From IMG/VR virus record IMGVR_UViG_3300045988_009961: 5,922 bases of DNA; one strand, 5' to 3'. The position numbers and the translations under genes are program-made. The notes beneath the pieces were generated by a model that was given only the letters and a program-made list of their open reading frames with translations, was not told where the DNA came from and did not search any database. Origin of the DNA: a virus. Below, in pieces: positions 1,758 through 5,922 of the stretch. Numbering within the stretch: position 1 is the first letter of the stretch; every line of letters starts with the position of its first letter.

Positions 1758-3443
1758 TTACAGCTTATACAGGCCCGGCACGCTGTACAGCGGCATCCGT
1801 CGTGTGGTCTTGTTCGCCACTCGCACGGCTCCGAAGAACTGCGGTTCGTCCTGCACGATGAGTGTTCTTGCGATCTCTGCTTTTCCTTCTGCCATCCATT
1901 CCTGACTGAGTGTCGGAACAGTGTCGTAGTTGTCGGCATAATGCCAGAAATCTAACGTTCCGGTTGCGTTGCTTCTCATAAGGCCGGACACCCGGTTCGG
2001 TTTCATGCGGTAGTCGGCCCATGCTTCCTGATAACCGAAGGTTTCTTCATCGGTCGCGTTACCAGTCAACATGATTTCTTTCTTCTTTACCGGCTGCTCC
2101 CCCAGATTTGCGAACTGCGGCACATAATAGTCCAGCCTGTCGCGTCGGCTCCAGAAGCGTTCAAGGCCCTGCTGATAGCTGCGATTGTGTCTCACACATG
2201 CAACGCCAATGACAAAGCCGTGCTCTTCAAAGCTCTTGGTAAACGAACTTTCGTTGATAGGCGTTACAGACACCGCACCAGTTTCACCGATAGGCGTATC
2301 GGTTGCCGTTTGCTGGCCGCTTGTCTGGATAATTTGGTTAATGTTGACCATGTATCGGCCTCCGCCCAGATATTCCGGCACCTGTACTGTTTTGTCACTG
2401 ATGGTCACATCCCACAGTGCGCGTACCTGTTCGCGGTACCGGCTGCCGCCTCTGGCCAGCGCCTCATAGTATTGCTGCACGGCTACGGCCTGCCGTAGGT
2501 CGTTGATTGTTGCTGCTGTTACGCTGCTCAGGTCTGCCGTCATTCTATCGCCTACTTTTGCGCCGCTGCTGGTATATCCCAAAACTGCACGCGCTTTTTC
2601 ATCTGTATTATTGTAGTTTTGGGTCATCATTTGACTTGATGTGCGGCGTAGGTATCCGTTTTCAGCTGTCCATGTTCCGTTGTTTTTTAGGTCCTGAATT
2701 GTTAATGGGTTGTCTTTTGCGTCTGCCCAGTAAATCGGCGCGTTTCCGCTCATTGGCAGCGTAATTTCCGGCCCGCGGCTTGGGTAGGGCAAACAGGATG
2801 TGAAGTAGTCGTGGAATTTGTTTACCGGTAGCAGATTTCCGCCCAACACAGCGTTTTTTAGGTCGTCTTCCAGTGTTTCGCTTTTTTCTGCCACAAAGTT
2901 GTATGTCACGTCTGCATCGTCGCTCTTCAGAACTGCTGCGTTGTCTACGTTTTCGTCTCTAAAAAACTCGTTCCAGATTTTGACATATGCCCGGATAGGT
3001 AAGGCATTGACGCTGAATGGTCTTTTAATCTTCGTAGGTACACCCATATAGTCCAGAATGCTTTTTTCATCCGGCCCGGGTTTTGATGTTGATGCATTGA
3101 TTTTGATTTGCGGAACTGCGTATTCCTTGGTAGGCATCCATGGCGTTTCCTCAACTTCGCCCATAAAGTGTTTGAAGTTGTCCCACAGAATTCTGTTCGG
3201 TGCATAGAAGTAATATAGGTCGATGTATGAGTTATCCATTACCGGATATTTCGGTGTCGTCATGCGGATAATTGCCGTTGTGTCTACCTGGAATGTGTCT
3301 CCCGGCAGTACTTCATCCACGAAGAACGGAATCAGTTTACCGGAATCAAATGTGGTTAGGATAGTCTGGTCACGATTGAATCGCGTTCGGCTTGCGTGCA
3401 TTTCCGGAATCTGAAGGAAATGTCTTTCATTATTTCTGTTCAT
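1758..3443 (-). CDS. VP1: Major capsid protein VP1 (561 aa, Microviridae F-protein family)
   Basis: This is the longest ORF. Its N-terminal block ...RTRFNRDQTILTTFDSGKLIPFFVDEVLPGDTFQVD...YPVMDNSYIDLYYFYAPNRILWDNF... is the hallmark of Microviridae capsid proteins. A strong SD, GGAGG (3454-3450), lies 6 nt before the ATG at 3443. Confidence 0.97.
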   Translation of the reverse strand: MNRNNERHFLQIPEMHASRTRFNRDQTILTTFDSGKLIPFFVDEVLPGDTFQVDTTAIIRMTTPKYPVMDNSYIDLYYFYAPNRILWDNFKHFMGEVEETPWMPTKEYAVPQIKINASTSKPGPDEKSILDYMGVPTKIKRPFSVNALPIRAYVKIWNEFFRDENVDNAAVLKSDDADVTYNFVAEKSETLEDDLKNAVLGGNLLPVNKFHDYFTSCLPYPSRGPEITLPMSGNAPIYWADAKDNPLTIQDLKNNGTWTAENGYLRRTSSQMMTQNYNNTDEKARAVLGYTSSGAKVGDRMTADLSSVTAATINDLRQAVAVQQYYEALARGGSRYREQVRALWDVTISDKTVQVPEYLGGGRYMVNINQIIQTSGQQTATDTPIGETGAVSVTPINESSFTKSFEEHGFVIGVACVRHNRSYQQGLERFWSRRDRLDYYVPQFANLGEQPVKKKEIMLTGNATDEETFGYQEAWADYRMKPNRVSGLMRSNATGTLDFWHYADNYDTVPTLSQEWMAEGKAEIARTLIVQDEPQFFGAVRVANKTTRRMPLYSVPGLYKL

Positions 3444-4193: not shown

Positions 4194-4421
4194 TTACGAT
4201 GTGCCATTGTAAATTCCCCTTCTTATAAGTTCTAGTTCGATTGCATCTGCAAAGCTCTTCAAGTGCCAGATTTCGTCTAGCATCTTCTTTGCGGTTTCTA
4301 TGTCCGCTATCTTGCGCAAGAGCTTATATTGCGCGTCTATCTCTTTGTATTTCTTTTCGAGAATGTTTCTTAGTTCATCTTCGGTCTGGTCCCTTATGTT
4401 CCAGCTTTTGTGTAAGGCCAT
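4194..4421 (-). CDS. Hypothetical protein (75 aa), predicted helical/coiled-coil, function unknown
   Basis: A strong AAGGAG SD lies 8 nt upstream of the ATG at 4421. The ORF is in the operon orientation and fills the gap between neighbouring genes. I recognise no motif. Confidence 0.6.
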   Translation of the reverse strand: MALHKSWNIRDQTEDELRNILEKKYKEIDAQYKLLRKIADIETAKKMLDEIWHLKSFADAIELELIRRGIYNGTS

Positions 4422-5145: not shown

Positions 5146-5174
5146 ATTCTATCATATTTTTAGGTTTTTGTTAA
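5146..5174 (-). promoter_or_regulatory. Sigma70/SigA-type promoter for the main operon
   Basis: The minus strand reads TTAACA (5174-5169), a 17-nt spacer, then TGaTAGAAT (extended -10, 5154-5146). It is preceded by an A/T tract (TTTTTTAAAAAAA, UP-element-like, 5176-5190) and lies about 28 nt upstream of the first ATG at 5118. Confidence 0.6.
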
Positions 5175-5212
5175 GCTTTTTTTAAAAAATTTAGAAAACT
5201 TTTCCTAGGATA

Positions 5213-5290
5213 GGAGCGCCGTTTAACTCCCCGCCGTGGCGGCTCATTTTGATTTGACCGGCAAAGCCGGTTAGACTATTGGTGCGCTCC
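5213..5290. other. GC-rich multi-hairpin element in the intergenic region
   Basis: The closing stem GGAGCGC (5213-5219) pairs with GCGCTCC (5284-5290). It encloses hairpins CCGC-CGTG-GCGG (5231-5242) and ACCGGC-AAA-GCCGGT (5257-5271). Alternative pairings are possible, and I did not compute a fold. Confidence 0.35.
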
Positions 5291-5342
5291 GTCAGACGTT
5301 GCCGTCACCGCTTACCCTGTTTTATTGGCCGTTCTTTCAACA

Positions 5343-5424
5343 CTTTCCACATAGTTTTCAACTTTTCCACATTGTTAAATTTTATCACAACAGAGTGTTT
5401 CAACAATTCAACAAGTTATCCACA
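5343..5424 (+). promoter_or_regulatory. Dispersed DnaA-box-like sites interleaved with TTCAACA repeats
   Basis: The sites are CTTTCCACA 5343-5351 (7/9 to TTATCCACA), TTTTCCACA 5363-5371 (8/9, fits TTWTNCACA) and TTATCCACA 5416-5424 (9/9), all in the same orientation. (T)TTCAACA occurs at 5335, 5356, 5398, 5407 and 5429. Confidence 0.5.
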
Positions 5425-5471
5425 ATTCTTTCAACACTTCAAAAGTGCATTTTTTATTGATGCTTTGTCGT

Positions 5472-5498
5472 TTTTCCATGTTTTCCACGTTTTCCACG
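5472..5498 (+). repeat. Three head-to-tail 9-nt repeats, TTTTCCATG / TTTTCCACG / TTTTCCACG (DnaA-box-like, 6-7/9)
   Basis: Read directly from the sequence. They have the same orientation as the boxes at 5343-5424. Confidence 0.85.
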
Positions 5499-5500
5499 TT

Positions 5501-5516
5501 ACTACTACTACGGCTA
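5501..5516. repeat. Trinucleotide repeat ACTACTACTAC GG CTA. In phase it reads CTA CTA CTA CGG CTA, which is TAG repeats on the minus strand.
   Basis: Read directly from the sequence. It starts 3 nt after the tandem 9-mers and is followed by the AT-rich stretch AACAAGTTAATAAATATATA (5518-5537). Confidence 0.85.
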
Positions 5517-5530
5517 CAACAAGTTAATAA

Positions 5531-5577
5531 ATATATACGCGTGCGTGCGTGCGCGTAGACGCGCGCGTATGCGCGTG
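5531..5577. repeat. Alternating purine-pyrimidine (CG/TG) tract, with Z-DNA or cruciform potential
   Basis: ATATATACGCGTGCGTGCGTGCGCGTA (5531-5557) is 27 nt of perfect R-Y alternation. There is a one-base phase slip at G5558. ACGCGCGCGTATGCGCGTG (5559-5577) gives 19 more. The tract contains the palindromes ACGCGT and ACGCGCGCGT. Confidence 0.85.
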
Positions 5578-5582
5578 AATAA

Positions 5583-5614
5583 AGCCTAGTACCTTACTTG
5601 ATAGGTACTAGGCT
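5583..5614 (-). terminator. Perfect 12-bp inverted repeat with an 8-nt loop, 17 nt downstream of the rep stop. It is a candidate terminator and/or origin hairpin.
   Basis: AGCCTAGTACCT (5583-5594), TACTTGAT (loop), AGGTACTAGGCT (5603-5614). On the minus strand it is followed by TTATTCAC, a poor U-tract. Confidence 0.4.
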
Positions 5615-5630
5615 AGGTGACACTAAAATT

Positions 5631-5922
5631 TTACAAACCGCCCTTTTGTAGCTTTACAGATTTTTTGATAACTCTTTCTTTTGTCTTTAGATCTTCTGCG
5701 AAATCTGCGCTTTCATATTTGAGCCTGTTTTGTTCGATTACAGCTTTCTGCCTGTTTCTTTTGATTCTCCATAACCGTTCCGGGTTTTCCGCTTCCATCA
5801 TTTTTTCATAATATCGTGGAATTTGTGCTTTTTTTCCGTTGGTACACTGGATATAGCCTTTTCTCCAAATTTCCTCTTTGTGCTCCTGATAGTAGGAATC
5901 GCCAAGTCCCGGTTTCAGGCTC
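5631..5922 (-). CDS. VP4: Replication initiation protein VP4, 3' part. Only 5631-5827 is unique; 5828-5922 duplicates 1-95. The TAA stop is at 5633-5631.
   Basis: The frame carried over from position 1 (equivalent to 5828) reads ...NGKKAQIPRYYEKMMEAENPERLWRIKRNRQKAVIEQNRLKYESADFAEDLKTKERVIKKSVKLQKGGL*. Total CDS is 721 + 197 = 918 nt, or 305 aa. Confidence 0.9.
   Translation of the reverse strand, partial: SLKPGLGDSYYQEHKEEIWRKGYIQCTNGKKAQIPRYYEKMMEAENPERLWRIKRNRQKAVIEQNRLKYESADFAEDLKTKERVIKKSVKLQKGGL
5828..5922. repeat. Terminal redundancy copy 2 (identical to 1-95)
   Basis: Same 95/95 comparison as copy 1. Confidence 0.97.

Follow-up and report, generated by a model that had tools for sequence, protein, structure and literature searches.

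Iteron-type theta plasmids, whose origins combine iterons with DnaA boxes and an AT-rich region, and circular Rep-encoding single-stranded (CRESS) DNA viruses, whose origins pair a stem-loop with iterons, carry short direct-repeat initiator sites beside the region that is melted or nicked at the origin. In the pMV158 origin, direct repeats bind RepB, bend the DNA and promote extrusion of a hairpin (PMC1851628). The basal unwinding system (BUS) of bacterial oriC can be searched for by a rule asking for a DnaA box with no more than two mismatches, a spacer of 0–16 bp and at least three NAN trios (PMC8287927); the trio of C. difficile oriC is CACCTACTACTATTACTACTATGA, and the DnaA consensus is quoted as TTWTNCACA (PMC7561715). 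Here we compare with these systems a non-coding element at positions 5335–5537 of IMG/VR record IMGVR_UViG_3300045988_009961, the whole stretch of 5,922 nt being called the window. It belongs to a gokushovirus-type microvirus with every gene on the minus strand, and a 95-nt exact terminal direct repeat (1–95 = 5828–5922) identifies a circular assembly with a true genome length of 5827 nt. Gokushoviruses are the dominant microviruses in gut and environmental viromes, and to our knowledge their replication origins have never been mapped. The searchable literature yielded no account of gokushovirus iterons, DnaA sites or origin hairpins. With about even confidence, we read the element as the core of a conserved, portable and previously undescribed non-coding cassette of gut gokushoviruses, which lies beside their rolling-circle origin and would serve it as an accessory iteron and melting element. 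Relative to the genes, this origin appears to be inverted.

The sole large non-coding region of the window spans 5156–5630, between the stop codon of the replication gene rep (5631–5633) and the start of the next open reading frame (ORF) at 5155. It holds the following features, ordered along the plus strand:

5332–5445, plus strand: distal iteron array with units tTTTC(A/C)ACA at 5335–5342, 5344–5351, 5355–5362, 5363–5371, 5398–5405, 5406–5413, 5416–5424 (TTATCCACA) and 5429–5436, all in a single orientation.
5343–5351, plus strand: box-like 9-mer CTTTCCACA, matching the DnaA box at 7 of 9 positions.
5363–5371, plus strand: box-like 9-mer TTTTCCACA, 8 of 9.
5416–5424, plus strand: perfect DnaA box TTATCCACA, 9 of 9.
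5472–5498, plus strand: proximal iterons, three head-to-tail 9-mers TTTTCCA(T/C)G (TTTTCCATG, TTTTCCACG and again TTTTCCACG; 6, 7 and 7 of 9).
5499–5516, plus strand: trinucleotide run TTA CTA CTA CTA CGG CTA, that is, TTA followed by CTA CTA CTA CGG CTA at 5502–5516; these are TAG repeats on the gene-sense strand.
5514–5528, plus strand: invariant block CTACAACAAGTTAAT, which reads ATTAACTTGTTGTAG in gene sense and holds a phiX-like AACTTG core.
5524–5537, not strand-specific: AT-rich tract TTAATAAATATATA, 10–15 bp long and AT-rich in all relatives, with variable sequence.
5538–5577, plus strand: (CG/TG)n palindrome that adjoins the AT tract on its 3' side and, on the plus strand only, folds into an 18-bp hairpin containing G.T pairs.
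5583–5623, plus strand: origin-type hairpin with a perfect 12-bp stem (arms 5583–5594 and 5603–5614), the loop TACTTGAT at 5595–5602 and the 3' flank AGGTGACAC at 5615–5623.

Relatives were gathered from GenBank (12) and IMG/VR (80), and 63 distinct intergenic regions were aligned. The whole comparison covered about 130 related gokushovirus intergenic regions, with 113 distinct cassettes scored for motifs. Furthermore, the intergenic region matches 51 phage-database records at 67–79% identity, and all of the matches listed bear microvirus-type names. From this set a family repeat with the consensus TTTCAACA (tTTTCAACA) was derived. It is present in 6–11 copies in the compared intergenic regions, or 8–12 per cassette, in a single orientation and at spacings of 8/9 and 11/12 bp, i.e. 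about two per two helical turns. The logo of 730 iteron copies from 65 representative cassettes reads t-T-T-T-C-A(0.85)/C(0.13)-A-C-A. On the window plus strand the exact heptamer TTCAACA is found 6.1 times per intergenic region on average, on the opposite strand never; TTCCACA averages 1.2 copies per intergenic region of the aligned relatives.

A sequence-only reading of the window had described 5335–5537 as an oriC-like module of DnaA boxes, trio-like repeats and an AT-rich tract. Direct reading and a mismatch scan recovered all six box-like 9-mers where it had placed them, all on the plus strand, together with the CTA run and the AT-rich tract. What it had missed is that TTTCAACA-type units (5335–5342, 5355–5362, 5398–5405, 5406–5413 and 5429–5436) interleave with the boxes. 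Since boxes and TTTCAACA units alternate, they belong to a single array with about 12 iteron units. Judged by sequence, the 'DnaA boxes' of the window are iteron copies with C in place of A at one position. The alignment bears on the same point: in the column of the perfect box, TTTTCAACA is found in 35 of the 63 regions, TTTTTAACA in 10, TTTTCCACA in 7 and TTATCCACA in the window only. The perfect box recurs in the truncated contig L017, whose cassette is 99% identical to that of the window. In syntenic relatives the boxes are thus not kept as DnaA boxes. Likewise, the triple tandem at 5472–5498 is confined to the window and L017, and the relatives instead carry TTTTCAAC-TTTTCCAC(n). The sequence-only reading had also proposed a comparison with shuffled sequence. 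In 5000 dinucleotide-preserving shuffles the excess of boxes proved real but modest, the tandem copies not being independent of each other: five boxes with at least 7 of 9 matches lie on one strand (shuffle mean 1.1–1.5) and two with at least 8 of 9 (shuffle mean 0.09–0.15), each at p = 0.003–0.01.

The proposed trios, by contrast, are kept. The run (TAG)n is present across the 113 cassettes with 3 to 7 copies, changing in 3-nt steps. CTACTACTAC is essentially invariant across the intergenic alignment, and so are CTACAACAAGTTA and AACTTGTTGTAG in the relatives. Such strong conservation indicates that the element is functional. Moreover, the 10-mer ACTTGTTGTA of the invariant block is shared with the hairpin loop of phiMH2K, there on the sense strand.

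The cassette measures about 200–300 bp and has the orientation of the window in 70 of 77 assessable relatives. In five distinct and mutually diverged contigs (L037, L071, L078, L079 and L082) it is inverted as a whole, from the AT tract to the distal iterons. Hairpin, GC palindrome and genes keep their position in these contigs, and a segment of about 300 bp downstream of rep flips, bounded by short GC-rich inverted repeats (TGTGCGCGT / ACGCGCA...). One further contig, L043, has unrelated sequence in place of the cassette. When a genome collection was scanned with the invariant block CTACTACTACNNCTACAACAAGTT, the matches were a distant gokushovirus, L216, and a chance match inside coding sequence (L217). 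The capsid protein VP1 and the Rep protein of L216 are 41% and 39% identical to those of the window. Its cassette (3040–3260) lies between VP2 and VP4, has a core about 85% identical and reads TTTCAACA on the sense strand, which is the opposite orientation relative to the genes. Among 52 relatives of L216 (L220–L271), 47 have a cassette between VP2 and VP4, with 7–11 exact TTCAACA and 0 TTCCACA, and one member of this clade carries it downstream of rep. Furthermore, 15 diverse gokushovirus contigs possess only the hairpin, in a short intergenic region without iterons. The occurrence in both orientations and in a distant clade, together with the existence of cassette-free gokushoviruses, therefore argues for a cassette that acts on duplex DNA rather than on RNA or one DNA strand, that is accessory to the basic replication mechanism and that has moved horizontally as a non-coding module. 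The only accessory protein common to both cassette-bearing clades is the M15 peptidase, which is unusually similar between them (58% amino acid identity).

The sequence-only reading had proposed testing for capture from a host. No convincing source was found in plasmids or bacterial genomes, and blastn against 72,556 plasmids returned only weak matches of 22–41 nt. The best of these (weak, 40 nt, E = 0.005–0.2) lies in a Subdoligranulum variabile prophage, in an array between genes upstream of terS. In the S. variabile replicons L218 (1640–1690) and L219 (1995–2045) this prophage array, GTTTTCAACGAGTTTTCACACCGGTTTCAACTTTTCCACATT, shares a 17-mer with the proximal iterons. Weak as it is, the match may hint at an Oscillospiraceae host or at a common host-factor site. 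Inspection for a dif/XerCD-type integration site, by eye only, gave no convincing match.

Beside the cassette, the ACTTGAT hairpin is the putative Rep nick site of the family, as judged by homology. The origin of phiX174 was verified as CAACTTG/ATATTAATAAC (CAACTTG/ATA, the slash marking cleavage; rep_origin annotated at 4306), and the window loop TACTTGAT holds this nick core. The loop ACTTGAT and the flank TAGGTGA are also found in Chp2, SpV4 and the 15 diverse gokushovirus contigs, and within the window clade the stem shows compensatory changes. Cleavage would be predicted at ACTTG/AT (5600/5601), on the antisense strand of the genes. The Rep itself carries the motifs PHYHMILY (HUH) and YVAGYVTKK (YxxxY, two tyrosines) and matches PF23343, i.e. 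it is of the phiX/G2P type. Thus the window has both the ACTTG/AT core and the two-tyrosine HUH Rep of a phiX-type viral-strand origin, but its hairpin is not on the gene-sense strand. In Chp2, SpV4 and the 15 other contigs the ACTTGAT strand is sense (hairpins at L093 2900–2950, L095 1630–1665 and in L105–L213), whereas it is antisense to every gene in the window clade. The L216 clade has a variant hairpin (loop CCTTGTC, flank TTGACACC) that is also antisense to the genes. In this respect, and in having an iteron cassette at all, the two clades differ from phiX174 and most gokushoviruses.

The GC palindrome between cassette and hairpin is strand-specific. The segment 5528–5625, which holds it, folds with –28.9 kcal/mol on the plus strand versus –24.4 on the minus strand, and in 62 of 63 distinct versions the strand corresponding to the window plus strand folds better (mean ddG –5.4 kcal/mol, Wilcoxon p = 6e-12). 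The minimum free energy structures of these versions contain 229 G.T pairs on the plus strand versus 4 on the minus strand. This asymmetry would mark the plus strand as one that exists single-stranded, no matter whether it arose by selection for folding or by C-to-T deamination. A corresponding asymmetry of G.T versus A.C pairs in the stem of the ACTTGAT hairpin appeared in a flexible count and was absent from recounts in fixed register and from minimum free energy structures, and was dropped. The polarised substitution spectrum at four-fold sites of rep was uninformative, with only 41 usable sites. The window plus strand is strongly T-rich (AT skew –0.33), a sign that the hairpin strands of other gokushoviruses usually share; base composition is suggestive as to which strand is packaged, with phiMH2K and L151 as exceptions. 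From the hairpin strand and the folding asymmetry together, we lean slightly towards the view that the window clade packages its antisense strand. The GC palindrome is a candidate for a complementary-strand origin or for a mark of the packaged strand.

Some other gokushoviruses show elements of their own upstream of the hairpin. In Chp2 (L093 2815–2880) there are five phased A-tract repeats, two of which are tandem copies of TGTGCAAAA and fit a relaxed DnaA consensus in reverse complement. The 4484-nt gokushovirus contig L151 (= L277) possesses a perfect 16-bp parS palindrome, TGTTCCACGTGGAACA, at 2485–2500 (0 of 200 shuffles), followed about 70 nt downstream by a perfect TTATCCACA and then TATCCACGG. 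Palindrome and box lie about 250–320 nt upstream of its origin hairpin and are absent from its two detectable relatives.

How might the cassette work? It would act on the duplex replicative form: a sequence-specific protein may coat and bend the iteron array, the bound array would help to melt the adjacent trinucleotide and AT tract, and melting would in turn promote initiation at the neighbouring nick hairpin. In this it would be comparable to the bind locus found in origins of rolling-circle plasmids. As in the double-strand origins of the pMV158 family, a nick sequence is predicted in a hairpin loop, conserved direct repeats, which would bind the initiator and bend the DNA, lie tens of bp away and an A-T tract is in between; even the heptamer TACTACG is present. 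Unlike in pMV158, the corresponding TACTACGGC (5506–5514) is outside any predicted loop and its G/A step is not conserved, the Rep is of the phiX type with two tyrosines (YVAGYVTKK) rather than RepB/Rep_2, and there are 8–12 short iterons instead of three 11-mers. With theta plasmids and CRESS viruses the cassette has in common direct repeats next to the region that is melted or nicked. It differs from them in that the window has no plasmid-type initiator gene and that length and sequence of the repeats are unrelated; furthermore, CRESS iterons abut the stem, whereas the GC palindrome intervenes here.

Which protein would bind the iterons can be said only tentatively. The phage Rep (VP4) is a possible candidate, supported by the analogy with the pMV158 bind locus and by a Rep-like AACTTG motif inside the cassette; host DnaA is a rather doubtful one, and another host factor doubtful as well. 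Several observations weigh against an origin-accessory element of this kind, or against Rep as its ligand. Rep is only 39% identical between clades that have identical iterons, therefore a host factor fits better than a co-evolving Rep. The Rep of the cassette-bearing clades has no extra domain or clade-specific feature, which weakens it as the binder. A search for a dedicated iteron-binding protein common to these clades found none. Most gokushoviruses replicate without a cassette, hence it is not essential to the basic mechanism. Finally, given its AACTTG motif, the cassette could hold the nick site itself.

Among the other explanations, mimicry of a host origin survives best. ATP-DnaA would nucleate on the iterons, serving as weak-to-strong boxes, extend onto the TAG trios of the gene-sense strand and open the AT tract, and thereby the nick hairpin would be exposed or a host helicase loaded, as in the BUS of Firmicute oriC. 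The pattern is formally there. In the window CGTGGAAAA (two mismatches to TTATCCACA) is followed, after a spacer of 0–3, by TAA TAG TAG TAG on the gene-sense strand, then CCG TAG and then the AT tract, and with strict TAG/TAA trios this is the single match to the rule in the whole genome. The loose rule holds in 98 of 113 distinct related cassettes, but it is permissive, giving three false positives elsewhere in the 5.8-kb genome. As in the BUS of B. subtilis and of C. difficile oriC2, tandem box-like 9-mers stand at a spacer of 0–4 bp from at least three TAG/TAA trios on the strand with TGTGGATAA-oriented boxes, and AT-rich DNA follows. Order, spacing and polarity of the oriC-like module thus stand, and its boxes as conserved DnaA boxes do not: the cassette repeat is TTTCAACA and not TT(A/T)TNCACA, without any conserved high-affinity box. 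There is also no GC cluster before the trios, and the neighbour is a phage Rep nick hairpin rather than dnaA.

The iteron is one mismatch off TTWTNCACA, the trio of C. difficile is of the same CTA/TAC repeat kind, and the trio run varies in steps of 3 nt. Moreover, no DNA-binding gene accompanies the cassette in its moves between phages whose Reps are 39% identical, which favours a host factor, and strong Shine-Dalgarno sequences together with an extended –10 promoter suggest a Firmicute-like host. On the other hand, A in 85% and C in 13% of the 730 copies at position 6 form a consistent alternative consensus, unlike the scatter of oriC boxes. Only part of one clade has the more DnaA-like CCAC units, the L216 clade has no TTCCACA unit at all, and scans of plasmids and genomes did not link the cassette to any host oriC. 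A literature search on DnaA together with gokushoviruses or Microviridae found nothing, and we know of no rolling-circle phage that needs DnaA. We therefore regard DnaA mimicry as unlikely; a low prior, weighed against a specific but imperfect resemblance, makes functional use of DnaA by this phage improbable. Quite improbable is the more far-reaching version, in which host DnaA is recruited to open the replicative form beside the Rep nick hairpin by a mobile cis-cassette, an imitation of the Firmicute origin-unwinding module acquired by a gut gokushovirus clade that appears to package its antisense strand. If true, it would be the first DnaA-assisted origin in a microvirus.

Very doubtful, too, is the idea that the cassette holds the true Rep cleavage site, either a gene-sense nick TTAACTTG/TTGTAG (5527 to 5516) or a pMV158-like TACTACG/ on the plus strand, with the iterons as its bind locus. 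It would account for the invariance of AACTTGTTGTAG, for the 10-mer shared with the phiMH2K hairpin loop and the AACTTG core shared with phiX174, and the pMV158 nick 9-mer, TACTACG/AC, begins with TACTACG. However, the motif lies outside any hairpin loop. In the inverted relatives and the L216 clade it is on the same strand as the ACTTGAT-type hairpin, and a pair of active sites in direct orientation would cut out sub-genomic circles. TACTAC is followed by either G or T, the G/A step is not conserved, and the Rep is phiX-type and not Rep_2.

We consider it equally hard to believe, or slightly more so, that the array serves another host regulator (e.g. one like Spo0A) or is a purely structural bent-DNA element, controlling transcription or the timing of replication. 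The 0A box of Spo0A is TGTCGAA, and TGTTGAA is one base off; yet the G needed at that base by a true 0A box occurs in less than 1% of copies. Also in favour are the iteron spacing, which puts T-tracts in helical phase, the phased A-tracts of Chp2 at an equivalent place and the Subdoligranulum prophage array, but that last match is weak (E = 0.005–0.2); moreover, the sole predicted promoter lies some 160 bp off and the cassette is invertible and movable. As identity of the repeat itself, a Spo0A box, parS and the pMV158 nick site were each rejected, every one of them failing at a conserved base.

A complementary-strand (single-strand) origin, in which repeats or CTA triplets are read on packaged single-stranded DNA by primase, RNA polymerase or a DnaA-dependent ABC-type primosome (the last proposed in the sequence-only reading), is highly improbable: the cassette does lie just 5' of the origin hairpin on the apparently single-stranded strand, the usual place in plasmids, and CTA is the preferred initiation triplet of Firmicute primases, but such origins are orientation-specific while the cassette is found either way round with respect to the hairpin, no structure is predicted for the region (z = –1.44 for the whole intergenic region, no better than shuffles), the perfect box, which an ABC-primosome site would keep double-stranded in a hairpin stem of the packaged strand, is unpaired in the predicted fold, and the neighbouring GC hairpin is the better candidate.

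Returning to the cassette as an origin-accessory iteron and melting element, the locus offers a testable origin architecture of a family-wide ACTTGAT hairpin, a strand-specific GC hairpin and a mobile, invertible iteron/trinucleotide cassette. Should host DnaA be the ligand of the iterons, this would be a rolling-circle phage that borrows the chromosomal initiator; should it be Rep, microviruses would use iteron-assisted nicking as plasmids and CRESS viruses do. The antisense hairpin and the G.T asymmetry furthermore suggest virions with the non-coding strand, which, if true, would overturn the assumption of a uniformly positive-sense family.

The remaining features of the window are:

5205–5330, no strand assigned: GC-rich element with covarying sub-hairpins (e.g. 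GACCGGCAAAGCCGGT; GGAGCGCC...GGTGCGCTCC), between promoter and iterons.
5146–5174, minus strand: predicted strong sigma-70-type promoter TTAACA-17-TG-n-TAGAAT with extended –10, preceding the gene block.
5155–4547, minus strand: M15 peptidase ORF.
4072–3833, minus strand: ORF5/VP5.
3867–3430, minus strand: VP3 scaffold.
3443–1758, minus strand: VP1 capsid (PF02305, E = 2e-140).
1719–823, minus strand: VP2.
826 across the circle junction to the stop at 5631–5633, minus strand: VP4/Rep (PF23343).

The element at 5205–5330 has no Rfam match and its fold is no more stable than those of shuffles. It is confined to one sub-clade, and other relatives carry a different GC-rich element (GAATGGCGCTTTAGCGCC...) at this place. 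In the Rfam scan of the whole window the only matches, two sub-threshold ones to microRNA models, fell on the GC palindrome and were judged as noise. The extended –10 promoter and strong Shine-Dalgarno sequences suggest a Firmicute-like host. At four-fold sites the sense strand of the window genes has A 0.44, G 0.25, C 0.19 and T 0.12, an extreme strand bias whose sign is the reverse of that in phiX174, where the sense strand is T-rich. For the 202-amino-acid 'peptidase' ORF the start at 5155 is probably wrong (window 5155–4930, minus strand), because the predicted –10 element overlaps the ATG, the peptidase domain begins near residue 92 and relatives are annotated with about 130 amino acids. 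Residues 1–75 of this ORF are extremely basic and J/VP8-like, and the strongest ribosome-binding site precedes a 60-amino-acid ORF in a different frame (5127–4936).

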